Of a stretch of 64,000 nt of DNA, positions 3,937 to 60,161 are shown in pieces. A program made the position numbers and the translations under genes. Position 1 is the first letter of the stretch; the number at the start of each line of letters is the position of its first letter. A model generated the notes under the pieces. It searched no databases. It was not told the DNA's origin and was given only the letters and a program-made list of their open reading frames with translations. Source of the DNA: Candidatus Saccharimonadota bacterium (GTDB lineage: Bacteria > Patescibacteriota > Saccharimonadia > Saccharimonadales > Saccharimonadaceae); the NCBI GenBank assembly GCA_017460065.1, contig JAFUBT010000003.1:7134-71133 (forward strand). Reading direction: 5' to 3'.

Positions 3937-5451
3937 ATGTCTACTGCAAAATGTTACTCTGCTATTCCGCTCGGCTTCACTGGGCGCTCCATCACTGTCG
4001 AATGCGACAGCCTGCATGGTCTGCCCGCATTTAATATCGTCGGCCTGCCCGGCCGCAGCATCGACGAAAGCCGACTTCGCATTCGTTCTGCTATCAAGAA
4101 CTCCGGCTTTCGCTTCCCAGCAGATAGGATCACCGTCAATCTCGCCCCCGCAGACCTTCGCAAGACTGGCACTGGTTTTGACCTACCTATCGCCGTAGAC
4201 ATCCTCGTGTCATCCGGCCAACTCCTCCAACGCGACCTCGAGCAGCGTGCCTTCATTGGCGAATTATCCCTCAACGGAGGCATTAAAGCCACGCATGGCA
4301 TCATCAACGCCATCGAAGCCCTATCCAGCAAAATGCTCCGCGAAATCTATATTCCTGTCGACAATGCCGCCGAGGCCGCACTCATTGCCGACCAACACAC
4401 TATTATTCCCGTACAATCGCTCCGCCAACTCTGACTACATCTGAAGCAAATTCACCCCATTTTACCCCTGAGCAAAAATGTCAAAAATACACAAACAGAT
4501 AACCATAAGCGTCTTCTACTAGATCATATATCTGGTCAGCACGAAGCTAAGCGCGCCATTATCATCGCAGTCGCCGGCCGCCACAACATCCTTCTACATG
4601 GCCCACCCGGCGTTGGCAAAACCATGCTCGCCCAGGCCGCCCGCGACCTTCTTCCGCCCGTCAGCCACGACGAAAGCATCGCTATCACCAAGCTTCGTTC
4701 TCTTAGCTCCCCCAACCTCGCACCCGCCAGTCAGCGCCCTTTTCGCAGCCCACATCATAGCTCAACTCTTAGTAATCTGATCGGCAGCAAACTCAGTCTC
4801 CTCCCGGGCGAAATATCTCTGGCCCACCACGGCGTCCTCTTCCTCGACGAATTCCCCGAATTCTCCAGCCAGGCCATCGAAGCTCTCCGCACTCCACTTG
4901 AGACCAAACAAATCACTCTCTGCCACGCGAACACTAAAATTACCTACCCCGCTGATTTTATACTCATTGCCGCTATGAATCCCTGTCCTTGCGGCTACCA
5001 CAACACCGGCGTGCGCAGCTGTAATTGCACGCCTCACCAACTCTACAAATACCAAAAGAAACTTTCCGGGCCCATCCTCGACCGTATAGATATGACCGTT
5101 CAACTACAAGCCATCGACGCCTCTGTTTTATTAAAAACCACAACGAATAGCACTCGCCAAGATGCTAGTGCTAAAACCGCCATCGCCCGCGCCTACCACG
5201 CCCAAACTCAGCGCTACCACTCCCCCGCCATCACAAACGCCGCGCTTAATTCTGTCAGCGTCTGCGAACGACTCAAACTCAGTCCTAGTGCTCGCCAATT
5301 ACTCAATGAGGCCAGCGCAAAACTCCAACTCTCCGCTCGTGCCTACTTCCAAACTATCAAAATCGCCCAAACTATCGCCGACCTCGATGCTGTGCCTATT
5401 ATCGATGCACCCCAAATCGCCGAAGCTCTTCGTTACCGCCGTCCATTCTAA
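3937..5451 (+). CDS. comM: ComM/YifB Mg-chelatase-like AAA+ competence protein; one reading frame interrupted by a single in-frame TGA at 4432-4434 (pseudogene or readthrough)
   Basis: The N-terminal Lon-like domain (MSTAKCYSAIPLGFTGRSITVE...) runs to the TGA. The same frame continues LHLKQIHP...HISGQHEAKRAIIIAVAGRHNILLHGPPGVGKTMLAQ (Walker A) and joins ORF 4624..5451. The ORF-track start at 3763 overlaps tmRNA and is rejected. Confidence 0.8.
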
Positions 5452-5454
5452 CTA

Positions 5455-5579
5455 TGCTGCAAAAACATAACGGAGCCTGCTGGCAAGTTCAAGATGCGGC
5501 TCGCACGTGAAAGGTATCGACGCCAAGGTAATGCTTAGGCATAAAACATAACGGAGGTTACGACCGAGTTCCAGACGAA
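5455..5579 (+). repeat. two truncated or diverged copies of the TAACGGAGCC-core palindromic element
   Basis: TAACGGAGCCTGCTGGCAAGTTCAAGATGCGGCTCGCACGTGAA at about 5468, then TAACGGAGGTTACGACCGAGTTCCAGACGAAGC at about 5548. The partner of the second copy, GCTTCGCCCC, resumes after 5695. Confidence 0.6.
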
Positions 5580-5695
5580 GCTCAAGCATACTATACTACG
5601 AAACGTAACGGAGCCTGCTGGCGAGTTCAAGATGCGACTCGCCCGTGAAGACGGGCCGAGACGACATCGTGTTTCGTAGCATAGTATGCTTGAGC
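5580..5695 (+). repeat. complete palindromic element, copy A (25-nt arms plus 66-nt conserved core)
   Basis: Arms gctcaagcatactatactacgaaac (5580-5604) and gtttcgtagcatagtatgcttgagc (5671-5695). Core GTAACGGAGCCTGCTGGCGAGTTCAAGATGCGACTCGCCCGTGAAGACGGGCCGAGACGACATCGT. Confidence 0.75.
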
Positions 5696-5705
5696 GCTTC
5701 GCCCC

Positions 5706-5734
5706 TTGTCATCCCGCCCCACTTCTGCTATAAT
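5706..5734 (+). promoter_or_regulatory. infC operon promoter (extended -10)
   Basis: TTGTCA (5706-5711), 17-nt spacer, TGc TATAAT (5726-5734). Confidence 0.55.
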
Positions 5735-5771
5735 TACCCCATAAACAAGTCTAATTTTAAGGAGCACAGCC

Positions 5772-7063: not shown

Positions 7064-7342
7064 GCAGAAAAGGCTACATAGCTTATTCTTAAAACGTAAC
7101 GGAGCCTGCTGGTATAGTAAAAAGCTAGTATTAACTTTTTTGGAATATAACGGAGCCAAAAAACAGAGACGCAGAAAAGGCTACATAGCTTATTTTTTAA
7201 ACGTAACGGAGCCTGCTGGTATAGTAAAAAGCTAGTATTAACTTTTTTGGAATATAACGGAGCTCACGAGCGAGTTCCAGCAGGCGTTCGCCCGTAACGA
7301 CGGGCCGAACGAACTGCGTATTCCAAAAAAATTAATACTAGC
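7064..7342 (+). repeat. nested and tandem array of the TAACGGAGCC element (107-bp period, 2 units) ending in a complete copy C
   Basis: Unit gcagaaaaggctacatagcttatt..aaacgTAACGGAGCCTGCTGGtatagtaaaaagctagtattaacttttttggaataTAACGGAGC occurs at 7064 and again at 7171. The final copy has arms ctagtattaacttttttggaata and tattccaaaaaaattaatactag around core TAACGGAGCTCACGAGCGAGTTCCAGCAGGCGTTCGCCCGTAACGACGGGCCGAACGAACTGCG. Confidence 0.75.
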
Positions 7343-7347
7343 CTAAC

Positions 7348-7688
7348 AAGCTCATCAATAAGCCGGGTTCTGTACCCCAAAGGGGCAGTAGCCATCTATC
7401 TAGCCTCGCGATTGCTCACGAGATCTAGCGGTGAGCGACCATCCGCGGATCACGGTATCTAGGTCTCCTTGCAGCCAATAGAGTTTACCTCACGCCAATG
7501 TCACCATCAGCGCCTGTGAGCTCTTACCCCACTCTTTTCACCCTTACCACGACCGAAATCATGGCGGTTTAGTTTCTGTGGCACTTTTCCTACCCTTACG
7601 GGCGGTTGCCGTTAGCAACTATCGTATCCTGTGCTGCCCGGACTTTCCTCTCGCTATTTTTCAAGCCAGCGGCTACTTCGATGAGCTT
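7348..7688 (-). ncRNA. rnpB: RNase P RNA, bacterial type A
   Basis: Minus strand contains GAGGAAAGTCCGGGC, ACAGAAA, GGGTGAAA, GTAAGAGC and ACAGAACCCGGCTTA. P1 is formed by AAGCTCATC (5') and GATGAGCTT (3'). Confidence 0.9.
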
Positions 7689-7744
7689 GACAACATCATA
7701 ACACAAAACCCCTCAATTAGCAATCCGCCTATGCTAAGTGCTAA

Positions 7745-8644
7745 CTACCACTCTGCCCGCTGCGTGTGCAGGTCGATTATCTTATTAACTTCAGCATCCG
7801 CCTCGGTATTCTTACTACGCGGTACATGCGTAAAGCTGAACGAATCAAGATTTTCCAGCAACTTTAGCACATCGCTATACACCTGCATCAGATCTTTATT
7901 CTTCACTTGGTACACCCCGTTCAGCTGATTCACCATCATCAGACTGTCGCTCATAAAGTTCACCTTCTTGTAGCCCAGTTCGATTGCCTGCTCTAACCCC
8001 TCTTTCAGGCCATAATACTCTGCTAACCGGCTATTCGACATCCCCAGAAATTCTCCGCCCCGCTTAATTTCCTTGCCGTCCGCATCTAAAATATAATACC
8101 CAACCCCGCTCGGCCCAGGGTTGCCCCGGCTACCGCCATCGGTGTAAACCGTAATCACTCCACTCGCAGTCAGATTGCCGCCTTCACTCTCCTGGCCAAA
8201 ATTCGCCATCCGCTCAGCCAGCTTCGGTCGGTTTGCCTTATTTTGGATAATCTGCAATACCATCCCCGACGCTTCATCGAGTCGCAATTCGTTCACCCGT
8301 TCGACCTCTTGCCAACTATAGGCAACGTGACGCTCATTCGTCAGCTTTATCTCGGCCTGCGCATCAAAATTCACTCGAAACACCACGAACAAATTCGCCA
8401 AAGCCGAAGCCGATTCGAGATTCGTAAAGGTCACGACATCTTCCAGCATTAACTCTTGCGCTTGCACCGCTAGATTCTCGTAAATAATCCGCGCCATCGC
8501 TTCATCCGGCTGTTCGCCGAATACAATCTTCCCTGTCGGCAACTCATAATTATCCATACCAACCACGCGCCCCGCCGCGCGTTTCAAGAGCAACACTTTA
8601 CCCTCGTGCTCACAGATTGCCGTCACCCGAATCCGCTGTTTCAT
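7745..8644 (-). CDS. two-domain protein: N-terminal Nudix-like domain fused to C-terminal RNase HI
   Basis: C-terminal half VITVYTDGGSRGNPGPSGVGYYI...AEYYGLKEGL...HVPRSKNTEADAEVN is RNase H-like. N-terminal GKIVFGEQPDEAMARIIYENLAV resembles a degenerate Nudix box. Confidence 0.7.
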   Translation of the reverse strand: MKQRIRVTAICEHEGKVLLLKRAAGRVVGMDNYELPTGKIVFGEQPDEAMARIIYENLAVQAQELMLEDVVTFTNLESASALANLFVVFRVNFDAQAEIKLTNERHVAYSWQEVERVNELRLDEASGMVLQIIQNKANRPKLAERMANFGQESEGGNLTASGVITVYTDGGSRGNPGPSGVGYYILDADGKEIKRGGEFLGMSNSRLAEYYGLKEGLEQAIELGYKKVNFMSDSLMMVNQLNGVYQVKNKDLMQVYSDVLKLLENLDSFSFTHVPRSKNTEADAEVNKIIDLHTQRAEW

Positions 8645-8680
8645 TACCTTGAATTATACCATAAGCGTAAACCGCAAAAA

Positions 8681-8810
8681 ATCCTAAGTGAGTGCGTTTT
8701 CCCGTGATAAGAACACGGTGGGTAAACTCGCTTGCTCTAGAACCACGGTCCTAAAACCTTGAATTCCCATAAACATGATTATTCAGGAAAATCATGTGCT
8801 CACTTAGGAT
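8681..8810. repeat. 12-bp perfect inverted repeat enclosing ~106 nt in an intergenic region
   Basis: atcctaagtgag (8681-8692) and ctcacttaggat (8799-8810). Internal hairpins ccgtg/cacgg and catgatt/aatcatg. Confidence 0.5.
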
Positions 8811-8845
8811 ACTTCTATTATACCATAATTGCCAAAGCGCCAAAT

Positions 8846-9475
8846 CTAGGCGACGCCGACCAATGCATAGAAAAAATGCAATATCCCCTCTGTCGCTGCG
8901 CTCATATAATTACTGAATAACCCTCCACCTAGCAGTAATAAGGCATAAATCACAATCACCCCATAGCGCTCCATCGTCCGCATCACCCCACGAATCGACT
9001 CCGGCGCCAAGGCGTACAATATCCTCGAGCCATCTAGCGGTGGAATCGGCAATATATTAAATAGACAGAACCCCAGATTCACCATAATCGCCGTCAGCAA
9101 GAAAGTCCCCACCATCCCTGTTGCCTGCGTCCAATACAACAACAAAAATGCCCCTAAGGCCAGCACGAAATTCGTCAGCGGCCCCATCAGCGCCACCAAG
9201 GCAAAGCCCCATTCGCCACCCCGCACCTTTCGGGTGTCAATCGGTACCGGTTTTGCCCCACCAAAGACTGGCATTCCCGCCAACGCAAGCATCAGCGGCA
9301 CCAGTACCGTCATAACTGGATCAATGTGTCGTAGAGGATTTAGTGACAGCCGCCCATCGTTCTTTGCGGTATCGTCCCCCAACTTATAGGCCGTAAAACC
9401 ATGCGCTAATTCATGCAGTACCATCGAAAATACCACAATCACGAACACGAAAATAAGGTAATAGATTTTATCCAT
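8846..9475 (-). CDS. site-2 protease family (M50) membrane metalloprotease
   Basis: HELAHG motif in the first TM helix, multiple TM segments, PLDGSRIL motif. Confidence 0.8.
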   Translation of the reverse strand: MDKIYYLIFVFVIVVFSMVLHELAHGFTAYKLGDDTAKNDGRLSLNPLRHIDPVMTVLVPLMLALAGMPVFGGAKPVPIDTRKVRGGEWGFALVALMGPLTNFVLALGAFLLLYWTQATGMVGTFLLTAIMVNLGFCLFNILPIPPLDGSRILYALAPESIRGVMRTMERYGVIVIYALLLLGGGLFSNYMSAATEGILHFFYALVGVA

Positions 9476-9505
9476 TACCTTATTATAGCACCTACTAAAA
9501 GTGTC

Positions 9506-9697
9506 TTATTTAATCAAACCTTTTTTACGGAGCGTGCGCAAAGCAGAGGTTGAAACATTCAACTTAACCTTACGGCCATCAACCACTACGGTACGCTTTT
9601 GGATGTTTGGCTTAAAAACCTTGCGAGTCTTGTGCTGCGAAAAACTCACATTGTGGCCATACATCTTGCCTTTACCGGTAATTTCACATACTGCCAT
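9506..9697 (-). CDS. rpmB: 50S ribosomal protein L28
   Basis: MAVCEITGKGKMYGHNVSFSQHKTRKVFKPNIQK... Confidence 0.9.
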   Translation of the reverse strand: MAVCEITGKGKMYGHNVSFSQHKTRKVFKPNIQKRTVVVDGRKVKLNVSTSALRTLRKKGLIK

Positions 9698-9780
9698 ATC
9701 TATTATTCTCTATTATTTTCTTAAAACTGCGTTCTATTATATCTTATAATCCCTGTTTTTGCAAGGCTCAGCCGCAGCGT

Positions 9781-10230
9781 CTAGTCCAGCTTCCAGACTT
9801 CGAGCGCCGGCGGCAAAGCCGAGGCGTTCTTAATGCGCAGCTTCTTCTCTAGCTTCACGCCTGCCTTTATCTCTGCAAAGTCCATGTTGCCCATTGGGAT
9901 AACAATCTTCGGCTCGACGATCGACACAATTTTCGCATTCGCCGTTCCCAAGATATCAATCGGCCCCAATTCGTCCAGCTCTTCCGTCTTGACGCCGTCG
10001 CCCACCAAACCAATCTTGATACCGTCGATATCAATCCGATACATCACGCCCCCCTCTTTGGTGTCCTTAGCGCTAATCACAATATCGCCAATTTCATACT
10101 CACCTGCACCGACCAAATCCCCTACCGGTAAGGCTGCATCCACCCTTGATTGTGCGACATTAATATTTACGAGCTTTTCCTTAGCCCGAATCACCATTTC
10201 ATCAGAATTTTTCAGCTCTATTTCAAACAT
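9781..10230 (-). CDS. hypothetical protein
   Basis: 149-aa ORF with a strong upstream GGAGAGGAG RBS. No domain recognised. Confidence 0.5.
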   Translation of the reverse strand: MFEIELKNSDEMVIRAKEKLVNINVAQSRVDAALPVGDLVGAGEYEIGDIVISAKDTKEGGVMYRIDIDGIKIGLVGDGVKTEELDELGPIDILGTANAKIVSIVEPKIVIPMGNMDFAEIKAGVKLEKKLRIKNASALPPALEVWKLD

Positions 10231-10250
10231 TCTCTACTCCTCTCCACCAA

Positions 10251-10853
10251 TTACAAAATATTTTCTGGATCGTATCGCTCGCTGACTTGCAGCTGCATCA
10301 CGCTCTGCAAGAAACGGTCGCGCACGCTCTTTCTATATATATAATCTTCCTTGCTCAGAATGACATAGTTGAGCGGCTTCCCCTCGCGCTTCTCGACTAC
10401 TTCCGCCCACCGCGTCAATTTCCTTGCTTCATCGTTGCCAACAATTAGCACATCAATGCCATCCTGCCCGACCAAACGATTCGTCACCAATACTGCATTA
10501 ATCAAGTTCGCAACTGGACGAATGTATTCTTCCCACACGTCGCGATGCACTTCCACGTCTTCAACCGAACCAATTTTCTTGGAAAAAATTTCAGTCATCG
10601 GCCGCGCAAACGGGTGTCTCATATTAGCTGAATAATATAATTTGTTCTCGTAGTTCTCAGTTTTTACCAACCCAAGAGTACTTAAATTGGTCAGCTCACG
10701 GCGCACAGAGTTAATCTGTTCACCAATTACCCGCGTAATCTCACGCACATAATAATTTTTGTCAGGGTTATCAAAGAACAGCGCAAGTAGCTTTGCTCTG
10801 GTCTTCGAGCCAAATAATTTCTCAAGTGGCATCGTATTATTCTCTTTGCTCAT
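10251..10853 (-). CDS. winged-helix (ArsR-like) transcriptional regulator with C-terminal uncharacterised domain
   Basis: N-terminus LFGSKTRAKLLALFFDNPDKNYYVREITRVIGEQINSVRRELTNLSTLGLV. Confidence 0.6.
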   Translation of the reverse strand: MSKENNTMPLEKLFGSKTRAKLLALFFDNPDKNYYVREITRVIGEQINSVRRELTNLSTLGLVKTENYENKLYYSANMRHPFARPMTEIFSKKIGSVEDVEVHRDVWEEYIRPVANLINAVLVTNRLVGQDGIDVLIVGNDEARKLTRWAEVVEKREGKPLNYVILSKEDYIYRKSVRDRFLQSVMQLQVSERYDPENIL

Positions 10854-24392: not shown

Positions 24393-24468
24393 GGGGTGTT
24401 AGCTCAGTTGGTAGAGCGATTGGTTCGCAATCAATAGGTCAGGAGTTCGAATCTCCTACACTCCACCA
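24393..24468 (+). tRNA. tRNA-Ala(CGC), CCA encoded
   Basis: GGGGTGT acceptor with G3:U70, anticodon loop TTCGCAA. Preceded by TGc TATAAT at 24370-24378. Confidence 0.9.
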
Positions 24469-24507: not shown

Positions 24508-25203
24508 TTATTCAACCAGCATCTCTACTAACAGTACGTCTCGATATAATCGTGCATTCACATCACAAGTCGACAGCATCAATAGCTTTCCGCCAACATG
24601 TTCGTCTCGCCAATTCGTCGCCTGTTGTCGTAGCCGTGCAAGCACATAGTTATTCTTAGCCCGTAAAAAACTATCCACACGGTACAGTTCATCTGTTGCA
24701 TCAATCACGACATACGCCAACACTCGCAGTCGGACTTGCCGCCGTCTTATCGTCAACTCACCACTATCATGCTCTGCAAAATACTCCTCATCGGCAAAGC
24801 GACTAATGTCTCCGAACATCCGATGACCATCCATCCGGTGTCCATAAATCACTGCAAAATCATCGCTAAAATCTCGCGCATTCCGATAATCCAAAAAGAT
24901 ACTTCCCGCCGTCGCATATTCATCCCGATAATTGTGCCGCAAGTAATAGTTGTTGTCCGCCGCTTGCATAATCGGCTGGTTAATCTGCGTCTCATCAAAT
25001 TTAATCCAGCCCACTAAGTTTGCGCTGGCCGCCGCATCCGCCAAGACCACTTCCGCCTGCGCCTCGTCCGCAAACACCGGTGCGCTCTGCATCACCTGCC
25101 GCGCATCCCACAAGGCATAACCACCCAAAGCCAACATTCAGACCACGATGGACCACATTATCGTTCGTAAAATCACCTCCACCCACCGCAAGCATCTATT
25201 CAT
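24508..25203 (-). CDS. srtB: class B-like sortase; N-terminal membrane anchor interrupted by in-frame TGA at 25138-25140
   Basis: GWIKFDETQINQPIMQAADNNYYLRHNY, GSIFLDYRN, VIYGHRMDGHRMF and LMLSTCD (TLxTC). Own translation from ATG at 25201-25203 gives MNRCLRWVEVILRTIMWSIVV*MLALGGYALW, a TM helix spanning the stop. Confidence 0.75.
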
Positions 25204-25513
25204 CAACAATCCCCCTCACTCGCAACAATGCCAGCACGCGCCCTTTTATTTCGCCACCGTTCATTGCAGGCAACTCGTCAATTCGCCAACCGTTTTTGTC
25301 ATACAATATCACGTCGCTGTCGCCATATTGCCGCCATAATCGCTCATATATCACCAAATCGCCATCTCGCAACGTGGGGTTTTCTTCGCCCGTTGCCCGG
25401 TAAAATCCCAACACCTGCGCAAAACACAGTCAGCCCAACATCAGCAAACAGCCAATTCGCACCAAACACCCAATCTCGAGCCTATCCCGCCACCGTTTTG
25501 TAATTTTCAGCAT
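25196..25513 (-). CDS. SipA/LepA-like signal-peptidase-I homolog lacking the catalytic Ser; in-frame TGA at 25430-25432
   Basis: Own translation from ATG at 25511-25513: MLKITKRWRDRLEIGCLVRIGCLLMLG*LCFAQVLGFYRATGEENPTLRDGDLVIYERL... The S26 box GxSMxPTLxxGD appears here as GEENPTLRDGD. Confidence 0.55.
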
Positions 25514-25564
25514 ACTATACCACTTTAAAGGCCGCCACCATTGCAACGGCCTCGCCTGATTCCT

Positions 25565-26638
25565 CTAGTTTTTCTTTTTCGAAATCGCCCAATACACGCA
25601 AACGCCAGCTATGCCAATAATCGCAATTCCCACGAACGGCAGCACCATCGTCGACACCCCAGTCGCCACCGAACCGTTCCGCATATTATCAAAGCTCGTC
25701 ACATTCTCGGCACTAAAGCTCATCCCGCTCGGGTTGCCACCATATTCACTGGCGGTTTGTTTGGCGCGAGATTGCTTCGTACTTACGCTCATGTCGCCAT
25801 CAACATACGTACTGTAACTATCTGCGTCCAGCTCCGTGATGCTATACTCAAGTCCTAGCGGCAATTCGTTCTCTCCGTTATTGCCAATCTGTACGCTCTG
25901 ACCGTGTTTCAAATACACAAAGTTCTCTTCGCCCACGGTATAGTAGCGCTGCGTCTGGATGCTCTGTCCACCATATTCAACTACCGTATCCTGGCCCGTA
26001 ATCGAAAACACGTCACCCAACCGCGCAGTCGGAAAATCTATCCGGAATTTAAAGTACTCATCGGTGTCCGCATTGTCGCCCGATACAGTCTTGGATAACT
26101 GGATATGAGTCCGACGGGCCATTGAATCAAACATCAAGTTATCCGTCTTCCGACCACCAGCATCCGTTACCTGATCGGCCACCGTTGCAATTAAATTACC
26201 CGTCGGTCTAGTGCCGTCCAGCTCATTACGAGCTGCAATTAGCACCGTATAGGCTTGCATGTCATCAATTGGGTAATTACGCTCGTCCGACGACGCAATC
26301 TCACGAATCACGATTCGGTAGTCCCCTACCTTCGTAAAAGTTAAGTCTGACAAATTCACAATCTTGTCGCTCTGCGCAATCCCACCATTCGGCGTCGCCG
26401 ACACTCGCATACTAAAATTCGCCAATCCGCCAATCTCTGCCGGATTATTCTCGTCGGCCGTCATCGAATAGCTAAATGTTACTGCTACCGGGTTTGCGAC
26501 GTTCGATACGCTCCGCACAATTCTTACATTATTTTCGCCTGACGTAACGTGCGTTTCCGCTGCCATCACCGGCGCCGTTGCGCCCGCCTGCAACATAATC
26601 ATGGCCGCAAAAGCCAGGCCTTGCCAAAACTTTTTCAT
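25565..26638 (-). CDS. sortase-dependent backbone-pilin-like surface protein (isopeptide/CnaB-type folds)
   Basis: Signal peptide MKKFWQGLAFAAMIMLQAGATAPVMA. LTFTKVGDYRIVIREI (T-antigen-like motif). E-box-like LEYSITELDADSY. C-terminus SVATG plus a hydrophobic stretch and KKKN. Confidence 0.6.
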   Translation of the reverse strand: MKKFWQGLAFAAMIMLQAGATAPVMAAETHVTSGENNVRIVRSVSNVANPVAVTFSYSMTADENNPAEIGGLANFSMRVSATPNGGIAQSDKIVNLSDLTFTKVGDYRIVIREIASSDERNYPIDDMQAYTVLIAARNELDGTRPTGNLIATVADQVTDAGGRKTDNLMFDSMARRTHIQLSKTVSGDNADTDEYFKFRIDFPTARLGDVFSITGQDTVVEYGGQSIQTQRYYTVGEENFVYLKHGQSVQIGNNGENELPLGLEYSITELDADSYSTYVDGDMSVSTKQSRAKQTASEYGGNPSGMSFSAENVTSFDNMRNGSVATGVSTMVLPFVGIAIIGIAGVCVYWAISKKKN

Positions 26639-26802
26639 TTTCCTCCTTATGGTTCTTTTTACGGATTCATGGCCACGAATTCGTCTAGCCCTCATTTAAA
26701 CACCCCTCCAAAAAACAAAAAAGCACAAGTACGACGTTTTGCAATCACCTGCTAAAATACATCAAAAATCCCCCTCTAACAGGGGGATTTTATTGAACAA
26801 AT

Positions 26803-28587
26803 TTATTGTTCGTTTTTGACAGCTCGGTAGCTACCTGCGGCCACCAGCACGCCTAGGGCCGATAGCAACATGCCGTAGCTTTCCGTCGTCAATACGTCAG
26901 CTGTCTTTGGGTTTGAGCCGTCCGCGACAACTTCTTCCGCAGCAGATTCCTCTGTCGGAACAGCCTCGTCATCGCCACCCTTACCCGGCTCTTCCTCTTC
27001 CACTACATAACTCACGAAAGGCTGTTCGAAATCCTCTGCCTCACGTTCGTTGCCTTCCGAGTCAACCGGGTACAAAGTCGCAACTTCATTCGTTGGCACG
27101 CTATATTCGCCCGCCTCCGTAGCCTTATTAACTAACTGCAGTATATAGCTCAGCGACACCCGCTCAAAGTTAGAAATATTCCGCAAAATATTCCAAGTAA
27201 AGCTTTCACCATCGGCGTCATAGTCAATCGTGAATTCGACCACGCCATCCGCGTTCGCAAACTCAATCGTGCTGCCATTGACGGTCTTTGTTAGAGCGGC
27301 CTTCTCTGCGCCGTCCACACCCGTCACGACCAAATTGAAACTGCCCAAATCATACAAATCAAAGTCTTCGCCAATCACGCCGACGACCTTGCTCCCCCTA
27401 CCTAGCAAGTACAAGATATCTTTGCCAACTTTCGCAAAATCCATCGTCTCGCCGTTGTTCATCGCATCAATCAAAGCTACCGTCAAAGGGCTATTTGAAC
27501 CAGATTTGACTGCATAGACATGGTAATTTTCGGCCATCTGGCGCCACTGCTTGAGCGCTTCAAAGATAGCCCGATCCATTGACAAAGCGTGCTCTTTCTC
27601 GCCGTATGGCACATAAACAAAGTCTTCGCTTGGTGCACCGTAGTAGATGTTTGTACCATTAAAAGGGTAGGCATAGCTGTCACCATCGGCCGCAACCCAC
27701 TCTTCTACCTGCGCCATGTAGGCATCCCAGTCGCCACCGGGAATACCGTAGCTACCCTCTTTTACGCCACGTGCAACCGACCAAGACGACGACTCGCCCC
27801 AGTACTGCGCACTGTTTTTATATAACTGGTAATAAATATCCATTACCGTGCCGTCTTCCGACGTCCACAGACGCGTCAAGCCGTCCGTCACTAAAATAAC
27901 GTGTTTGCGCGTATTCGTCACCTCGGCGTCAGCCTGCAACAGCTCTTCAGCCCTCAAGAGGCCGTCCTGGATATTTGTACCACCATACGGCGGATTCTTA
28001 TAGCCTTCTCGAATCAAAGCCTTTATCGCGTCAACATTATCGGCCGACAATTCTACTAGCTCTTGCGTAACTTTTGCATTGCCCTTGAACACAACGATGG
28101 CAATCTTAATTTTCGTACCGTCATCATTCTGCACCTGCGCATACAAATCATCAACCAGTTGTACGGCATCATTAATAGTTGCGCTCTTACAGCTCGAATT
28201 ATCAACCACGAACACAATATCGCTGGCCAAGTTTTCTTCGCTCGACGGCAAAGACAAGGTCACCTCAGTGCGATCATTCTCGTCCAATTCAGTCGCCTCC
28301 TTTGATTTCGAGACGTCCCATTCTTGCGCCGCCGGATCATCGGTGTCCGGCCCCTCGCCTTCATTGCTTGGCTCACTTGTGGTCTGGCCGTCAGCCGTAC
28401 CCCCATCATCCGCGCCGCTAGTCGTTTCGGCATCACCGTTCGTGGCTGGCTGCTCTTCGGCCGTCGGCGTGCTTTCGCTAGCCTCCCCACCGTCTAACGC
28501 GTAGACACTATGCGTCGACATGCCAAAACAGAAGCCAAGCGCCAAAAAACCGGCTAGCACCCACGGAAAAGCCCATGTCTTTTTCAT
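26803..28587 (-). CDS. von Willebrand factor A domain surface adhesin with NPKTA sorting signal
   Basis: Signal peptide MKKTWAFPWVLAGFLALG, acidic linker, VWA core DIVFVVDNSS...ILVTDG. C-terminus NPKTAD (26899-26913) plus a TM helix and RAVKNEQ. Confidence 0.7.
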   Translation of the reverse strand: MKKTWAFPWVLAGFLALGFCFGMSTHSVYALDGGEASESTPTAEEQPATNGDAETTSGADDGGTADGQTTSEPSNEGEGPDTDDPAAQEWDVSKSKEATELDENDRTEVTLSLPSSEENLASDIVFVVDNSSCKSATINDAVQLVDDLYAQVQNDDGTKIKIAIVVFKGNAKVTQELVELSADNVDAIKALIREGYKNPPYGGTNIQDGLLRAEELLQADAEVTNTRKHVILVTDGLTRLWTSEDGTVMDIYYQLYKNSAQYWGESSSWSVARGVKEGSYGIPGGDWDAYMAQVEEWVAADGDSYAYPFNGTNIYYGAPSEDFVYVPYGEKEHALSMDRAIFEALKQWRQMAENYHVYAVKSGSNSPLTVALIDAMNNGETMDFAKVGKDILYLLGRGSKVVGVIGEDFDLYDLGSFNLVVTGVDGAEKAALTKTVNGSTIEFANADGVVEFTIDYDADGESFTWNILRNISNFERVSLSYILQLVNKATEAGEYSVPTNEVATLYPVDSEGNEREAEDFEQPFVSYVVEEEEPGKGGDDEAVPTEESAAEEVVADGSNPKTADVLTTESYGMLLSALGVLVAAGSYRAVKNEQ

Positions 28588-28779
28588 ACTTTCTCCCATT
28601 CCTTATGTTTTCCGACCGCCACAGCCGCATGGCAGCCTTCTACCAGAAACATATACCGCCTACCACTAATTTGCAATCATAAGCATAATATTTTATAATA
28701 TACTTTTTACGCTTAAAATTATTGCTCACCCTCCCCTGCGCCATTACAGTATTATTGTAAAAATCACAACACAAGAAAA

Positions 28780-28828: not shown

Positions 28829-30451
28829 CTACTTCTTCACTACCTTCTCGGTTACGTCGAATTTCTCCATGTAGAAGCCCAGCATTAAACGAATTTGCGA
28901 ATACAGCGCACAGAACGACGTGTAGACCACTGCAATAATCGGCGAAATCACCCATTGCAACACCATCAAAATCCGCTTTGAGTCACGGTAACGCTTCGGC
29001 TTTGGTGGCAGCATCTTAATCGACAGACCAATCGACACAAAGAGCAGACACATCGCAAAGGTCTGGATATAGCTCACTACCGTCGGCAAATTATGCGCCA
29101 AAAGATTGCGCGACTCAAAGTTAAAAATCAGCGGGACCCAACCCCCCAGCGCCACAATCGGCGCTGTTGCCGCCAAAGTCACATGCCCATCTAACAGCTT
29201 CACAAAGCGCGGCAACAACTCCGACAACTTCATTTTGCGTTGCTTCGACAACATATAATCCGCCACATAAGCCACATCGCTCGCTCCGTAATCCCAGCGA
29301 CGCAGCTGGATCCACTGCGCTTTCAGCGTCTTCGGCAAAGTATCGCTCAGCACCGCATCCTGGTAAATTGGCGCCCGAATCGGCAATACTTCGTAGTCGC
29401 CATCAAAGTAGAACAGGCTCCGCCAATACTGGTGCCCATCCTCCACGATTGTCCGCACACTCCAGAAATTCATTCCCACCAACGCATCAAGCGGCTGTGA
29501 ATGCGAAGCGAAGTTCCGCAAGTCCATCGGCCGCATTGTACAGACCAAGTTCCAGAATGAATTCGTCGAGGCGACCACGCGCGACACCGCCGGCGCATCC
29601 CAAATATTATTCGTAAACAACGACACTGGCTGGAAAGACATACGTTGGCGCTCTTCGTGCACCACGTACTCATACGCCACCTGGTCAAAATAGCACTTAT
29701 GCGGATGGTTATCGCTATCCAGCGTCGTCACGATAATATTCTCATACGACATCTTGTGTTCATCCGCATAGGCCTGCAGCCGCTTCCCCGCGAAAGTAAT
29801 ATTACCGCCCTTACCGATTACCTCATTCGGCAAACCGTCCGGATGTTTCGACAAAATAAAATCATAGAACTTCCCTGCATAACGTTGCTTGAGCTCTTGC
29901 GCCACCGCCTCGGCCGCCGCCCCACCCCGCTCCTCGTATGCCAGCAAAACAATCATCCGCTCCTTCGGGAAAGTCGAATCGCACACACTATCCAACGTCG
30001 GCACCAACGTATCCAGCCCCTCAGTATACATTGTCACAATCACTGCATGGTACACCGTGCGTGGGTCCAGGTATTTACCGCTCTCGTCAGCCGCCATCAG
30101 GCACAAATTACGTAAATGCTGCTGGTGATCATAGGCCTTACTACGCGAATGCGCCAGACGTTCGTAACTCTCCTTTGGCGTCTCCAAATCCACCATCCGT
30201 TTACGCCAATCAATCGCGCAACCCGCCTGCACCGTTTTATACCCTTGTACCGTTCGGAACATCACGCCAATCGCTTTTACTACACTGCTAATCACAATCA
30301 TCAGCAAGAAAATCGACCCCGCCACCGGCGACCACGCCGACAAAATCACCAGCGTCACCATAATCCCAATACTGACTAGCCCCGGGAAAATCTCAAAAAA
30401 CCGGTAGCGGCGCGTACGTTTCCCCACCGGAATTTCTCGAACTTTGGCCAT
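28829..30451 (-). CDS. processive family-2 glycosyltransferase (cellulose/chitin-synthase-like) with TM domains
   Basis: TTLDSDN and the QLRRWDYG (QxxRW) motif. TM helices at the N- and C-termini. Confidence 0.7.
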   Translation of the reverse strand: MAKVREIPVGKRTRRYRFFEIFPGLVSIGIMVTLVILSAWSPVAGSIFLLMIVISSVVKAIGVMFRTVQGYKTVQAGCAIDWRKRMVDLETPKESYERLAHSRSKAYDHQQHLRNLCLMAADESGKYLDPRTVYHAVIVTMYTEGLDTLVPTLDSVCDSTFPKERMIVLLAYEERGGAAAEAVAQELKQRYAGKFYDFILSKHPDGLPNEVIGKGGNITFAGKRLQAYADEHKMSYENIIVTTLDSDNHPHKCYFDQVAYEYVVHEERQRMSFQPVSLFTNNIWDAPAVSRVVASTNSFWNLVCTMRPMDLRNFASHSQPLDALVGMNFWSVRTIVEDGHQYWRSLFYFDGDYEVLPIRAPIYQDAVLSDTLPKTLKAQWIQLRRWDYGASDVAYVADYMLSKQRKMKLSELLPRFVKLLDGHVTLAATAPIVALGGWVPLIFNFESRNLLAHNLPTVVSYIQTFAMCLLFVSIGLSIKMLPPKPKRYRDSKRILMVLQWVISPIIAVVYTSFCALYSQIRLMLGFYMEKFDVTEKVVKK

Positions 30452-30452
30452 C

Positions 30453-30827
30453 CTATCCCCTTCCGACCAAGCTCAGCAAAACATGTAGCGCGATAATAAT
30501 TACCACACAACTTACCCCCATAAACAATCGCGCAATATCCTTCCCTCGCTTCGTGTGCAAACGCGCGGCGATTAAGATGTGCCCTGCGCCTAGCACAATC
30601 GCCATAATTGTAAAACTCAACAAATACCACCAACTCTGGCTATCGTCGTAGCTACTAAAGACGTCCGAGTATCGCCAATACAGCCGGCTATTCGGGTCTA
30701 ATCGGAATAACGACTCCAAAAACAACCAAATACTTAAGGCAAAATCCACCAACATCCATGCGATAAGTCCGCGATCCCTCTTAAAGATAGCTTCAAAATC
30801 AGCTGCTAACTGTTTCATACTAGCCAT
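30453..30827 (-). CDS. small 4-TM membrane protein, translationally adjacent to the GT2 gene
   Basis: 124-aa hydrophobic ORF. Its stop lies 1 nt from the GT2 start. Confidence 0.5.
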   Translation of the reverse strand: MASMKQLAADFEAIFKRDRGLIAWMLVDFALSIWLFLESLFRLDPNSRLYWRYSDVFSSYDDSQSWWYLLSFTIMAIVLGAGHILIAARLHTKRGKDIARLFMGVSCVVIIIALHVLLSLVGRG

Positions 30828-40212: not shown

Positions 40213-41022
40213 TCAAAGCCCCGCCCCAATAAACTTCAACAACCACCCCTGGCAGAAAAACACTCCCAAGACTCCCGCCACCAAGAACGGCCCAAACGGA
40301 ATTTGCATATGCTTTGACCGTTTTAGCACAGCCACTGGCAACATCACCAGTGACCCCAATAAATTCGCCACAAACATTGCAAACATTGCCAACCAAAAAT
40401 TTCCCAACATCAACGCCAGCGGTACGCACAACATCCAGTCACCCCCGCCCACCAGCTTCTCACTACTCAACCGATACAACAGATAGTAAAACACCGGCAT
40501 AATTAGCACCGCCCCCACAAGATTCTGCCAATCCACCACTCCCGTCATCTGGAAGCTTTGCCACAAATTTAGCGCTAAAAACAAAATCCCCACACCCCAT
40601 GCCCCGTACAACAGTTTTACGGGCAACTCACGCCATTTTATGTCATAAACGCATAAAACCGCGAAAATCGTCGAAATCACCAAAAACAGCCCAAATTTGG
40701 CCATTTCCAGCCCATCTAACGCCGACAAGGCCTCAAACCACGGCCACAATGCATAACTGAGCGCAAAGACTAAAGCCGTTCCGATTTCCGTCAAAATTTC
40801 GGCACAACCAATCTTTTTGCCACATTTGCGGCATTTGCCCCGCAGAGCCAACCAGCTCACAATCGGGATATTGTCGTACCATTGAAGACGATATTTACAG
40901 TGCATACAATGCGACCACTTTGCCTTATCCCCCTGGCGCAAACGCCAAGCCTGACAACAAGCAAACGATCCCATCATCGCCCCCAGCACAAACAGTACTA
41001 TCATCACGCCTATGTTTACCAT
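40213..41022 (-). CDS. pilD: prepilin peptidase (A24 family)
   Basis: N-terminal Cys pairs (CMHCKYRL, CRKCGKKI), polytopic, with GGGDWML. Confidence 0.8.
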   Translation of the reverse strand: MVNIGVMIVLFVLGAMMGSFACCQAWRLRQGDKAKWSHCMHCKYRLQWYDNIPIVSWLALRGKCRKCGKKIGCAEILTEIGTALVFALSYALWPWFEALSALDGLEMAKFGLFLVISTIFAVLCVYDIKWRELPVKLLYGAWGVGILFLALNLWQSFQMTGVVDWQNLVGAVLIMPVFYYLLYRLSSEKLVGGGDWMLCVPLALMLGNFWLAMFAMFVANLLGSLVMLPVAVLKRSKHMQIPFGPFLVAGVLGVFFCQGWLLKFIGAGL

Positions 41023-41085
41023 ATCTCTATCTTAGCATAAAAAATAGAGCTCCCCCTACGGAGCTCTATTTTGAATCAGCCATGA

Positions 41086-41619
41086 TTAGTGATTGTCGTT
41101 ACACTGAATCGAGCCACCTTCATTCACGTAGAAGATTGCAACCTGCCGGCTACCAGTGCCAACCTTGTACTCACCTTCAGTCGAACAAGAAGCGTTCGTG
41201 TACACATGGAAGGTATGATCAACCGAAGTGAAGTTTGCTGTACCATCAGCAGTTACATCCGCTTCGTACTTCATCTTATAGGTTTCGCCATCTGGATCCT
41301 TAAACTGATCACTGCTGTCGCTACAGCTATATGAGATGCCATCGGTCTGCTGAGTACAAGTCTCGTCAATATATCTCTTCACGAAATTAGCATTGACACT
41401 CATGCTACTCTTTTCAAACGGCGTCTGGCCACTGTTGTTGCTTTGATACGAATTCACGGCCGTCAACACGCGCGACAAATCGTCACCACGCTGCGTATTG
41501 CGCTGGCTTCGTTGTAGGGCTGGGAGCGCGATGAAGACCATCAGGAAGATCAGGCCAGCAATAGCGAGGACCAACACGACCTCGATGATTGTAAAGCCTT
41601 TTTTGGATTTGCTAGACAT
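41086..41619 (-). CDS. type IV pilin (prepilin-type N-terminal cleavage/methylation domain)
   Basis: MSSKSKKGFTIIEVVLVLAIAGLIFLMVF. Confidence 0.85.
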   Translation of the reverse strand: MSSKSKKGFTIIEVVLVLAIAGLIFLMVFIALPALQRSQRNTQRGDDLSRVLTAVNSYQSNNSGQTPFEKSSMSVNANFVKRYIDETCTQQTDGISYSCSDSSDQFKDPDGETYKMKYEADVTADGTANFTSVDHTFHVYTNASCSTEGEYKVGTGSRQVAIFYVNEGGSIQCNDNH

Positions 41620-41784
41620 TTTTACTCCTTTTTTATTTTTGCAATTAGCAATCGCCTACCGTGGCAGTTAGATGCCTTCTAACTATATTGCCGATTGCAA
41701 AATTTTTCCTAAGCTCAGTATATAACATGCTTATGTTAAAATTCAAGCATTTTGCAAGCTTTTCTCAAAAATCCGTCTTTTACC

Positions 41785-42987
41785 CTAGCTAATCTTGCCG
41801 ACCAAGGAGTAAATCGGCAGCAACACGCCAGCCACCAACAGTGCCGCCACGCCACCTAGCATCAAAAGCATAATTGGCTCAATCATTGTCGTGATTGCAT
41901 TCACCTTCTCGTCCAATTCATCCTCATAGACCTGCGCGGCCTTACCCAGCATCTCGTCCATCTTACCAGATTCCTCACCAATGGCCGCCATATTCGGCAC
42001 CAGCGGCAAAATGTAATCTTTATCTTTCAGCGACACTGACAATGCCTTACCACCCTGCACCATCGTCGCCGCTTCCTCAATCACATCTTGCACTACAACG
42101 TTATCAGTCGCTTCACCGGCAATCTTCACCGAATCCAGCATCGACACGCCCGTCGACAACAAAATCTGTGCAATCCGCGCAAAGCGCCCGTTGTACATTA
42201 ACCAGAACAAATCCTTAAACATCGGGATATTCAGCTTGATATTGGCCGCCGCGCGAATCCCCGGCTCAGTCTTAAAGAATTGCCGCAAACCCACCCCAAT
42301 TGCAGCCACCATAATCAACACCAGATACCAGAAATTCATAATAAAATCTTTAATCCCCACCAAAGCCTTCGTCAAAGCTGGTAGGGTCTCGTTCATGCTA
42401 ATATAGAGATTCTCCACCTCTGGCACCACTTCAACCATCATGTATACAAAGACCGCGATAATCACCAAAAGAGCAATAATCGGATACATCATCGCACCAC
42501 GAATCTTCTTCATGATTTTCTCGCTCTTTTCTTCCTGTTCGGCAATCCGGCGCAAACTGTCATCCAAAGTACCAGACACCTCACCCGCACGAATCAAAGA
42601 CAAATACACATTATTAAACACCTCTGGATGTTTGCCAAACGCCTCACCCAAGGTTCGCCCCGCTTCCACATCGGCATTAATCTGTTCAATGACCGCTTTC
42701 ATGCCCTTTGACTCGGTCTGTTCGGCCACCGTGCGCAACGATTGCGCCACCGGCAAACCCGCCCCAATCAAAGTCGAAAACTGCCTCGTGAAGGTAATTC
42801 GGTCGTTCGCCGCAATCCGCGTCTGCGCTTTGTCGAACAGCCCCGTACCTTCCTCGCGCACGCTGTCAGGAATATAACCACGGTCCAACAATAACTTACC
42901 CGCAGTCCGTTCATTCTCGGCCTGAATTGTACCCTTGATTACTTTACCGGTACTCTGCTCTTTTGCTCGGTAGGTAAAGCGTTTCAT
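41785..42987 (-). CDS. pilC: type IV pilus platform protein (GspF/PilC family)
   Basis: 400 aa with two GspF repeats and three TM helices. Confidence 0.85.
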   Translation of the reverse strand: MKRFTYRAKEQSTGKVIKGTIQAENERTAGKLLLDRGYIPDSVREEGTGLFDKAQTRIAANDRITFTRQFSTLIGAGLPVAQSLRTVAEQTESKGMKAVIEQINADVEAGRTLGEAFGKHPEVFNNVYLSLIRAGEVSGTLDDSLRRIAEQEEKSEKIMKKIRGAMMYPIIALLVIIAVFVYMMVEVVPEVENLYISMNETLPALTKALVGIKDFIMNFWYLVLIMVAAIGVGLRQFFKTEPGIRAAANIKLNIPMFKDLFWLMYNGRFARIAQILLSTGVSMLDSVKIAGEATDNVVVQDVIEEAATMVQGGKALSVSLKDKDYILPLVPNMAAIGEESGKMDEMLGKAAQVYEDELDEKVNAITTMIEPIMLLMLGGVAALLVAGVLLPIYSLVGKIS

Positions 42988-44087
42988 CCGCGCGCCAGCC
43001 TTTCAAACTCTTGCAAATCCACTGCATACTCGCGTGCGTTATCATAAGTAATCACACCCGTTTGAATCAGTTTCACCAATGTGCGATCCATCGTCTGCAT
43101 CCCTTGGTCAGCTCCAGTCTGGATAATTGTGTCGAGTTGATGCGTCTTGCCTTCGCGAATTACCGAACGTACCGCCGGATTCGCAATCATCACCTCGGCC
43201 GCCACTACGCGACCACCACCAATTGCTGGTACCAAACGCTGCGCACAAATCGCCATCAAGATGTTCGACAACTGCGAGCGAATCTGCGGCTGCTGATGCG
43301 GTGGAAATACGTCAATCATCCGGTCGATACTCTGCGCCGCCGAGTTCGTGTGCAAAGTCGCAAACACCAAGTGTCCCGTCTCGGCAATCGTAATCGCCGC
43401 GGATATTGTCTCCAAATCGCGCATCTCGCCAATCAACACCACGTCGGGGTCTTCACGCAGCACCGAACGTAGTGCCGCCGAGAACGAATAAGTATCGTAA
43501 TGTACCTCACGCTGCACCACCACGCTACGGCGTGATTTATGCGTAAATTCAATCGGGTCCTCAATCGTAATGATGTGGCGAGCTTTTTCGCGGTTAATCT
43601 TGTCCACTAATGCCGCTAATGTGGTCGACTTACCCGAACCAGTCGGCCCGGTCACCAAGACTAAACCACGCGGATATTCGGCAAAACTTGTCACCACTGA
43701 CGGCATACCCAAATCGGCCACTGACTTAATTTCGTTCGGAATCAACCGAAAAGCTGCCGCCAAATTCCCCTTTTCATGGAAGGCATTTACCCGAAAACGC
43801 CCCAAATCACCAAACGAGAAGGAATAATCAAATTCTTTGTCTTTGAGCAGGATATTTTTCTGCTCTTCCTCCAACGTCGAAAACACTAAGCGTTCTACCG
43901 TCGCTTCATCCAGTGCTGTATAGCCGCCAATCGGCTGCAAAGCCCCGTCAATCCTTAAAATTGGCGGTAACGACGTCTGCAAATGCAAATCACTCGCCTT
44001 GGTTCGTACACATTCTTCCAGAAGATTTTCGATTCGGATACCGCTGTTCGGCGCCGCATTGGTCGTACCCTGCCCACTTTGTTCCAT
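42984..44087 (-). CDS. pilT: type IV pilus retraction ATPase PilT
   Basis: 367 aa with GPTGSGKSTTLAAL, IITIEDPIEF, DVVLIGEMRD. Confidence 0.85.
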   Translation of the reverse strand: MEQSGQGTTNAAPNSGIRIENLLEECVRTKASDLHLQTSLPPILRIDGALQPIGGYTALDEATVERLVFSTLEEEQKNILLKDKEFDYSFSFGDLGRFRVNAFHEKGNLAAAFRLIPNEIKSVADLGMPSVVTSFAEYPRGLVLVTGPTGSGKSTTLAALVDKINREKARHIITIEDPIEFTHKSRRSVVVQREVHYDTYSFSAALRSVLREDPDVVLIGEMRDLETISAAITIAETGHLVFATLHTNSAAQSIDRMIDVFPPHQQPQIRSQLSNILMAICAQRLVPAIGGGRVVAAEVMIANPAVRSVIREGKTHQLDTIIQTGADQGMQTMDRTLVKLIQTGVITYDNAREYAVDLQEFERLARG

Positions 44088-59683: not shown

Positions 59684-59988
59684 CCCCTCTACAAATAAGG
59701 CCTGTTTTTAAGGTACTTTGCAGATTATACCACGAATCTCTATAAAATCAATGCGCCAGCAAGCCCACCGCGCATTTCGCATGACATATCAATACTACTC
59801 ATCACCATGGGCTATGACGCTATTTTTTGCCGCGGTCTTCAGGAAACTCACCCTATCACCGCAGCACGGAGTCTTCTGTTTCATCTTCAAAAATCTTAAT
59901 TACTGTTACGAATTTACCGCCGCAGCTCTTACATAGCAGCCCTACGAGCCTAAGCGACAAAGACATGGACCACATTGAAGACGAAAAT

Positions 59989-60114: not shown

Positions 60115-60161
60115 CGCACTCTACGGTCCCTTTTGATGAAGACCCCTCCCAATTTTAGCAA

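Follow-up and report, generated by a model that had tools for sequence, protein, structure and literature searches.

The closest described relatives of the locus examined here are the FCT pilus of Streptococcus pyogenes, whose components are the backbone pilin Spy0128/FctA, SipA/LepA, the sortase SrtC1/Spy0129, Cpa and FctB, and pilus islet 2 (PI-2) of S. pneumoniae and S. oralis, which encodes an adhesin (PitA), SipA, a backbone pilin (PitB) and a sortase (SrtG1). The PI-2 gene pitA often carries a premature stop; the stop codons reported there inactivate and affect the adhesin rather than the assembly genes. The tip adhesins GBS104 (S. agalactiae, pilus islet 1) and RrgA (S. pneumoniae, pilus islet 1) belong to pili whose assembly relies on class C sortases and involves no SipA. 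Here we describe four genes on the minus strand (24508-28599) of a 64,000-nucleotide stretch of contig JAFUBT010000003.1 (positions 7,134 to 71,133; the whole stretch is called the window below, and coordinates refer to it). The host is a rumen Candidatus Saccharibacteria, of the candidate phyla radiation (CPR). The four genes probably form a sortase-assembled covalent pilus locus of the FCT or PI-2 kind, inherited vertically in rumen Saccharibacteria, in which the UGA codons that interrupt the assembly genes are translated, most likely as tryptophan.

A reading of the sequence made without database searches (the sequence-only reading) had proposed a streptococcal FCT-like island of four co-directional genes, and all four open reading frames (ORFs) are indeed found side by side: a putative tip or surface adhesin, a backbone pilin, a shortened SipA homologue (mini-SipA) and a class-B-like sortase. 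With the S. pyogenes FCT pilus the locus shares the two-domain pilin fold and its sequence family, the Lys-Asn-Glu triad of the pilin C-domain, a loop lysine, an xVPTG-like sorting signal, and a non-catalytic S26 homologue beside a class B-type sortase. Unlike the FCT pilus, it has a tip protein with VWA and Ig domains in place of the thioester-domain Cpa, no FctB, a SipA of only 105 codons, Arg and Ser where the pilin N-domain would carry its isopeptide pair, a CPR host, and in-frame UGA in the assembly genes. The FCT-like label is thereby borne out for the T-antigen-type pilin, the SipA homologue and the class-B-like sortase, and not for a Cpa-type tip or for FctB. At the level of homology the identification as a pilus is firm; polymerisation we infer.

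The backbone pilin (25565-26638, minus strand) is a protein of 357 amino acids with two Ig-like domains. Its longest ORF extends to 26695 (376 amino acids), and the start at 26638 is the one used in homologues and in public gene calls; residue numbers given below are those of the 376-residue ORF, from which 19 is subtracted for the 357-residue protein. Pfam places it in DUF7601 (1e-11). Homologues are rare, with only 15 detected among 5.8 billion clusters, one of them named Candidatus Saccharibacteria. The motifs noticed in the sequence-only reading, LTFTKVGDYRIVIREI, YSITELD and SVATG, are present and are kept in these 15 homologues. The protein ends in SVATG, 23 hydrophobic residues and KKKN, and all 15 homologues possess an xVxTG sorting motif (SVATG, AVLTG, TVMTG and others), which resembles the (E/Q)VPTG of FctA pilins. 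One apparent pilin-sortase 'fusion' (P0011), a chimeric call in which the pilin is joined to a class C sortase, was disregarded.

A profile of the 15 homologues matched the S. pyogenes T-antigens and Spy0128 in the PDB over both domains (2.6e-27, for T18.1, to 1.2e-11; Spy0128, 2.3e-17), and more weakly the C-terminal domain of Cpa and FctB. AlphaFold2, run on the same 15-homologue alignment, returned an all-beta two-domain model with a mean pLDDT of 84. When this model was compared with the PDB by Foldseek, the top 16 matches were all Spy0128 or T-antigens (best E 2e-16, TM-score 0.68 on the target), followed by PitB of PI-2, whose sequence similarity to the window pilin is much lower than that of the T-antigens. 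The proposal of a T-antigen-like backbone pilin is upheld by both lines, the profile assigning the family and the model predicting two Ig-like domains.

The same profile alignment allowed the isopeptide residues of Spy0128 to be located. Spy0128 E117 corresponds to the invariant E132, and the C-domain triad K179/E258/N303 to the conserved K202/E288/N337. The polymerisation lysine K161 falls within one residue of K183, a conserved loop lysine. The N-domain pair K36/N168, however, is replaced by Arg61 and Ser191, the Arg being invariant across the Saccharibacteria group. Judged by sequence, the C-domain isopeptide thus appears to be kept, as does a putative inter-subunit lysine, and the N-domain bond to be lost; a search of this protein for Lys-Asn triads, as the sequence-only reading had suggested, finds one in the C-domain and not in both domains.

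The sortase gene (24508-25203, minus strand) comprises 231 codons from a conserved ATG at 25203, which overlaps the stop of sipA (ATGAATAG), and has an in-frame TGA at codon 22 (25140-25138). Under translation table 11 only the part downstream of this codon is called, an ORF of 209 amino acids (24508-25137). The conceptual N-terminus, MNRCLRWVEVILRTIMWSIVV-TGA-MLALGGYALWD, forms the only transmembrane anchor of the enzyme, with the TGA inside the helix. A complete triad is present (His in YGHRM, Cys in LSTC, Arg in YRDVLL), giving the locus a dedicated sortase. Class B signatures had been claimed for it, and the closest family is indeed the NCBIfam class B sortase TIGR03064 (E 1e-40 for SrtB; 2.6e-40 for ORF 24508-25137). 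Class B matches in the PDB range from 7e-29 to 5e-15 and include the sortases B of Clostridioides difficile and Staphylococcus aureus; the best are Listeria Lmo2181 (7e-29), Bacillus anthracis SrtB (1e-26) and S. pyogenes Spy0129 (3psq, 2.4e-23), the last of which we take to be that organism's pilus polymerase. Close homologues of the window sortase in public protein sets are nearly all called as 158-221 amino acids, which indicates that gene calling under table 11 cuts these sortases off and leaves fragments in the databases.

Between pilin and sortase lies sipA (25196-25513, minus strand), 105 codons from ATG at 25513 to TAG at 25196, with an in-frame TGA at codon 28 (25432-25430). Translation table 11 again interrupts the frame, and the mechanical ORF is just 72 amino acids from a GTG. 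A SipA-like protein of about 105 residues had been described from the sequence; its GEENPTLRDGD string and its relationship to SipA and LepA stand, and an open frame does not. Mini-SipA retains the N-terminal transmembrane helix, a remnant of S26 boxes B and C (GEENPTLRDGD, within GEENPTLRDGDLVIY) and the last beta-strand (KGRVLALLRVRG). Alignment with full-length S26-like proteins of 169-180 amino acids, one encoded as a second copy in related locus L003 and the other in locus L008, reveals that about 66 central residues are missing from all mini-SipAs, and aligning the family profile to SipA yields the same single long gap. As we read the S26 boxes, the position of the catalytic Ser is not Ser (EENPTL), and the deleted segment presumably holds boxes D and E and with them the Lys-bearing box. 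S26 homology is thus kept with loss of the catalytic Ser/Lys dyad, and a complete SipA fold of about 170 residues is not.

The Pfam model Peptidase_S26 gave no match on the window mini-SipA. The family profile, searched against the PDB, matched S. pyogenes SipA (4n31, 1.6e-9) and LepA (4k8w, 1.6e-8) and nothing else, which relates the small protein to S26 and supports its identification as a non-catalytic S26 relative of the SipA/LepA type. The family is very small: when 1.84 billion representatives were scanned exhaustively with HMMER, about five clusters of 72-108 amino acids and a few full-length SipA-like proteins were recovered. Between the window and locus L012, sipA shows a pN of 0.26 against a pS of 0.61, so it evolves under constraint. 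By homology and gene order, mini-SipA may act as an assembly factor.

The first gene of the four (26803-28587, minus strand) encodes the 594-residue putative adhesin; its longest ORF runs to 28599 (598 amino acids), and 28587 is the likeliest start. The VWA protein with a C-terminal sorting signal that had been read from the sequence is confirmed by Pfam matches to VWA_2 (1.4e-10), VWA (1e-9) and GBS104-like_Ig (1.8e-8) and by a C-terminus of NPKTA, a hydrophobic transmembrane segment and the basic tail RAVKNEQ. In the numbering of the 598-residue ORF, a signal peptide and an acidic low-complexity linker precede the VWA domain (about 127-390), the GBS104-like Ig domain (404-529) and an acidic stalk. 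The adhesin shares with GBS104 and RrgA the combination of a VWA domain bearing a MIDAS-like site, a GBS104-like Ig domain and a sorting signal. Unlike theirs, its MIDAS-like motif (DNSSC...GGT...TDG) begins with an imperfect element, DNSSC and not DxSxS. Across lineages the adhesin ranges from the 594 amino acids of the window to giants of 1,964-2,314 amino acids in related loci, which carry VWA, DUF7604, DUF5979, DUF7601 and FctA domains and keep the sorting motif as NPKTED or SPNTED. A sequence search of the PDB with the adhesin found a generic VWA domain as its only match, and a single-sequence AlphaFold2 model (pLDDT 39) was discarded.

Assembly can be modelled on the FCT and PI-2 paradigms. 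After secretion, the 357-residue pilin would stay in the membrane by means of its C-terminal signal, and the adhesin would be exported and retained in the same way. The membrane-anchored sortase would cleave after the Thr of SVATG to form a thioacyl intermediate, which K183 of the next pilin would resolve, and repetition of this step would build the shaft. Membrane-anchored mini-SipA would assist polymerisation, as SipA/LepA do in streptococci, and the VWA adhesin would be joined at the tip, or anchored separately, via NPKTA. Each pilin C-terminal domain would be locked by an isopeptide between Lys202 and Asn337, with Glu288 catalysing, while the N-domain would have no such bond. The UGA codons, which lie in the membrane-anchor segments of sipA and srtB, would be read through, most likely as Trp, and full-length SipA and SrtB would be made, probably at a reduced level relative to pilin owing to these codons.

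Several observations weigh against this pilus reading. No polymer has been seen. The adhesin and the pilin carry different classes of signal, NPKTA versus SVATG, with one sortase encoded at the locus. The adhesin signal belongs to the class NP[KN]T[AE]D, and the NPxT class recurs on the target protein of a diversity-generating retroelement (DGR) in the window, which ends in NPATS, a transmembrane segment and RRGLRRR; given this recurrence on a second surface protein, the sortase may anchor proteins generally, or a second sortase may be encoded elsewhere in the genome. Neither an FctB-like basal pilin nor a housekeeping sortase was found in the window. SrtB scores 139.4 bits against TIGR03064, short of the equivalog cut-off (153.75), and 'class-B-like' is the accurate name for it. 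Finally, mini-SipA is without half of the SipA fold and the related loci L010 and L011 have no sipA at all, which makes its role uncertain.

Some of this evidence would equally suit wall-anchored monomeric adhesins and no polymer, with the class B sortase anchoring NPxT signals generally and the T-antigen-like protein forming a single stalk. Classical class B sortases attach NPxTx substrates to peptidoglycan, and both the adhesin, with its NPKTA, and the DGR target (61882-63486) end in signals of this kind; the absence of a basal pilin from the window points the same way, as do the E-values of the sortase, which are better for the SrtB of Listeria and Bacillus than for Spy0129. We nevertheless regard a purely monomeric arrangement as quite improbable, since the signal on the pilin itself is xVxTG, of the FctA-pilin type and not NPxT, and a conserved lysine is kept in the very loop that bears the polymerisation lysine of Spy0128. 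Furthermore, to our knowledge the side-by-side arrangement of SipA homologue, class B sortase and T-antigen homologue has been described for pilus polymerisation loci only.

The interruption of both assembly genes leaves the locus, as found, without the uninterrupted sipA and srtB frames expected of an FCT/PI-2-type pilus. We inspected the sipA and srtB frames in every Saccharibacteria locus retrieved (designated by L numbers): every in-frame stop is TGA, none is TAA or TAG, and the sole frameshift is in L010. In srtB, TGA occurs at codon 7 in L012 (Trp in the window); at codon 10 in L013 and in L006, L007, L014, L015, L019, L024 and L025 (Trp, TGG, in L028); at codon 22 in the window, L029 (97.5% nucleotide identity) and L026 and L027 (83% amino acid identity), where relatives have Ala or Phe; at codon 32 in L014 (Trp in L006); and at the GW(I) position, codons ~62-64, in L003 and independently in L014 (Trp in all others). 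In sipA it occurs at codon 27/28 in the window and L029 and in L003, the residue being Trp in L012, L013 and the L003 paralogue. A third window gene is affected in the same way: comM, for a competence helicase of the YifB/ComM type (3937-5451, plus strand), has one in-frame TGA (4432-4434) between its ChlI-like and AAA+ domains and is otherwise full length, aligning end to end with Legionella ComM (8rxd, 1e-104). This position is Trp in the eight closest orthologues, and comM contains no TGG. Trp is thus found in relatives at six of the seven TGA positions, srtB codon 22 being the exception.

Across lineages, sipA, srtB and comM have acquired in-frame stops on 8-9 independent occasions, all of them TGA. 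Simulated single-base nonsense changes in intact homologues produced TGA in 22-31% of cases, which puts the chance of eight independent events all being TGA at p ~1e-4. Moreover, the srtB genes that carry these codons are under purifying selection. Between the window and L026, which have the codon-22 TGA in common, srtB shows a dS of 1.08 and a dN/dS of 0.10; the 21 codons upstream of the TGA have accumulated 9 synonymous and 6 conservative changes, and third positions have changed in 11 of the 21, a pattern which implies that srtB is read in one and the same frame before and after the TGA. L006 and L014, the latter with three TGAs, give a dN/dS of 0.18 (dS 0.36). The L006 clade and L013 have the codon-10 TGA in common at saturated synonymous sites (pS 0.75, pN 0.29). 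A neighbour-joining tree places L028, whose codon 10 is TGG, together with L013 and the L006 clade, where it is TGA, and L028 nests between these two groups; this placement among TGA carriers indicates that TGA and TGG interchange at that codon.

If each UGA is read as Trp, the conceptual proteins become ...SIVV-W-MLALGGYALWDAR for SrtB, ...LLMLG-W-LCFAQVLGFYR for SipA and ...SLRQL-W-LHLK for ComM. Without read-through SipA and SrtB would lose their sole membrane anchor, which counts in favour of read-through. In 8 of 10 cases the TGA was followed by A or C, but so few cases allow no interpretation.

A decaying locus would look different in several of these respects. On such a view sipA and srtB, and likewise comM, are nonsense pseudogenes, there is no pilus, and pilin and adhesin are relics or are served by another sortase. 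Both assembly genes are interrupted under table 11, srtB is frameshifted in L010 (though intact in L011) and has three stops in L014, L016 has a pilin with no sipA or srtB downstream, and UGA works as a stop in related genomes, all of which decay would explain. It would leave unexplained why the 8-9 independent stops include no TAA or TAG, why the TGA-bearing genes apart from L010 have no frameshift, why dN/dS stays at 0.10-0.18 in lineages with a common TGA across saturating synonymous divergence, why the codon-position pattern of substitution is kept upstream of the TGA too, and why TGA and TGG interchange at one codon. We therefore consider decay unlikely. The TGA-only pattern, the equivalence to Trp and the purifying selection are hard to square with pseudogenes and fit translation of UGA: the evidence is strong that the UGAs of sipA and srtB are most likely translated, and suggestive that they are read as Trp.

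Two other ways of passing a UGA were considered. Selenocysteine was ruled out, since the sites differ from lineage to lineage, fall within a transmembrane helix and align with Trp. Re-initiation at the ATG directly after the window srtB TGA would be insufficient, as its product has no membrane anchor, and the mid-gene TGAs of L003 and L014 are beyond such a rescue.

How far UGA decoding has changed in this lineage can be judged from the rest of the window. UGA means Trp (translation table 4) in Mollicutes and some endosymbionts, and low-level UGA read-through by tRNA-Trp occurs in Bacillus subtilis and Escherichia coli. The Saccharibacteria genes resemble these systems in having TGA where relatives have TGG, in codon interchange and in coding constraint across the TGA. 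Unlike table-4 systems, the phenomenon here is limited to srtB, sipA and comM and is not genome-wide, and UGA still ends other genes. Among 54 confident window genes (16,797 codons) we counted 206 TGG against 3 in-frame TGA, and the neighbouring genes sipA and srtB account for two of these TGA codons. The same 54 genes stop at TAA in 23 cases, TAG in 27 and TGA in 4, of which three are ATGA/GTGA overlaps with the start of the next gene and one is TGATAA. Such a pattern would fit weak termination at UGA; a TAG share of 50% among stops is unusually large in bacteria. In about 200 kb of related loci, a scan turned up no further gene split by TGA.

Full reassignment, in which the window lineage would have lost release factor 2 (RF2) and these TGAs would be ordinary Trp codons with no special link to the pilus, could account for the scarcity of TGA stops, which are nearly all forced by overlaps, for the abundance of TAG, and for three genes with in-frame TGA, two of them at positions that are Trp in relatives. 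It appears very unlikely. With TGG outnumbering in-frame TGA so heavily, and two of the three TGAs in adjacent small genes, UGA is not spread over many genes as a sense codon; it also remains a terminator in 4 of the 54. Related clades that share the srtB TGAs end genes at free-standing TGA stops, and a UCA anticodon is absent from the 10 tRNAs of the window and from the tRNAs of 13 related loci. The genes for RF2 and tRNA-Trp lie outside the window and these loci. Genome-wide, UGA has probably not been cleanly reassigned.

Some of these facts also bear on the reading that we prefer, a working pilus locus with translated UGAs. The L006 clade ends genes at free-standing TGA, the next TAA or TAG lying 22-99 codons further on, and the failure to find a UCA-anticodon tRNA leaves no obvious decoder. 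The comM TGA is known from a single sequence, that of the window, with no second for a selection test, and srtB of L014, with its three UGAs, would give hardly any product if read-through were not efficient. The mechanism may be decoding by a near-cognate tRNA-Trp, a suppressor that escaped recognition, or a reassignment at an early stage. As a tentative suggestion, which we think possible though rather doubtful in its entirety, this rumen Saccharibacteria family may decode UGA ambiguously, as a stop at gene ends and a usable Trp inside genes, and selection may at the same time have favoured such codons in the pilus-assembly genes (sipA, srtB) and comM, throttling or co-regulating organelle assembly and DNA uptake at termination. 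Ambiguous decoding of this kind would be either a UGA-to-Trp reassignment in progress or a suppressor-dependent 'UGA gate'.

Matches of the window sortase were found on rumen metagenome contigs. A search of a genome collection with the single pilin sequence gave no matches; with a tight six-sequence pilin alignment it identified six species-representative genomes with a relative, all of them Candidatus Saccharibacteria metagenome-assembled genomes, two from goat or sheep gut and four of unstated source. The pilus locus occupies the same chromosomal site in about ten Saccharibacteria lineages, between a 540-residue membrane protein and tRNA-Ala(CGC). Upstream in these genomes are membrane proteins of 121-124 and 540 amino acids and a Zn/Mn ABC transporter; downstream are the tRNA and a PMT_2 glycosyltransferase. 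In the window, tRNA-Ala(CGC) lies at 24393-24468 (plus strand) and is the conserved downstream boundary in all related Saccharibacteria loci. The 540-residue multi-pass protein (28829-30451, minus strand; motifs DSDNHPH and QLRRWDYG) is paired with a 124-residue membrane protein (30453-30827, minus strand), and synteny of these two genes with the pilus locus holds across all lineages. Neither protein has a Pfam or NCBIfam match; judged by eye, the larger looks like a processive GT2 glycosyltransferase.

The shared chromosomal site and a G+C content (0.49-0.50) matching the remainder of the window argue for vertical inheritance, and the locus G+C and GC skew, both like those of the rest of the window, mark it as a long resident and no recent island. 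The nearest non-CPR locus, L008, lies near YabP/YqfD sporulation genes and AgrB and encodes a pilin, an S26 protein of 180 residues, a small minor pilin and a sortase of 339 residues, a gene content that suggests Firmicutes as the ultimate source. Composition varies among the relatives. In L003, L004 and L005 a second, tandem pilus set (8222-10586) adjoins the TGA-bearing mini-SipA set and comprises a DUF7601 pilin of 350 residues, a 169-residue S26 protein that is full-length and non-catalytic, and a sortase of 264 residues, none with an in-frame TGA. L010 and L011, two assemblies of one lineage, have pilin and sortase genes and no adhesin gene; their srtB is frameshifted in the first (7107-7821, 82 + 161 amino acids) and intact in the second (5033-5749, 238 amino acids). 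Within the window locus, a consensus scan placed a terminator-like hairpin with an 11-bp stem and a T-run (26765-26791, minus strand) between the adhesin gene and the pilin-sipA-srtB genes. A promoter scan gave a result no better than chance.

The window also contains a complete DGR (59983-63486, minus strand), consisting of the 534-residue target (61882-63486), a 135-residue accessory ORF (61417-61824), an RVT_1 reverse transcriptase (60162-61442), a template repeat (59983-60114) and a variable repeat (62111-62242), with all mismatches at template adenines. The NPATS, transmembrane segment and basic tail of the target point to a hypervariable surface protein with a sortase signal. A tmRNA (3509-3873, minus strand) lies directly upstream of comM, RNase P RNA is found at 7343-7689 (minus strand), and 7745-8644 (minus strand) encodes a 299-residue NUDIX hydrolase fused to an RNase H-like (RVT_3/RNase_H) domain. 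Plus-strand GC skew is negative throughout positions 1-64000 (about -0.05 to -0.33 in every 2-kb bin) and most genes are on the minus strand, which together amount to a pronounced strand asymmetry. Type IV pilus genes are present at 40213-44087 (minus strand) and encode the prepilin peptidase PilD (Peptidase_A24), an N_methyl pilin, PilC (T2SSF) and a PilT-like ATPase (T2SSE), in agreement with the remark in the sequence-only reading that the sortase locus sits alongside such a system.

Saccharibacteria are obligate episymbionts. Sortases are frequent in CPR bacteria (PMC6744442), and type IV pili have been described in Saccharibacteria (PMC11623550), as have, recently, donor-strand-exchange Pam pili; attachment to host bacteria has so far been credited to type IV and Pam pili (10.64898/2026.03.03.709456). 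For this phylum, the searchable literature yielded neither a T-antigen/SipA/sortase-B pilus nor read-through at UGA. Relative to FCT and PI-2, the VWA tip protein, the shortened SipA, the lost N-domain isopeptide and the UGA-interrupted assembly genes set the locus apart, the last three being new. If the reading is true, a covalent T-antigen-type sortase pilus would be a third adhesive organelle in Saccharibacteria and would point to gene flow from Firmicutes into rumen CPR bacteria. The mini-SipA of 105 codons would be the smallest version of this assembly factor and could help to locate its functional core. The conserved UGAs, in turn, would offer a testable case of gene-specific stop read-through in bacteria, or of early UGA-to-Trp reassignment outside the lineages in which it is known.

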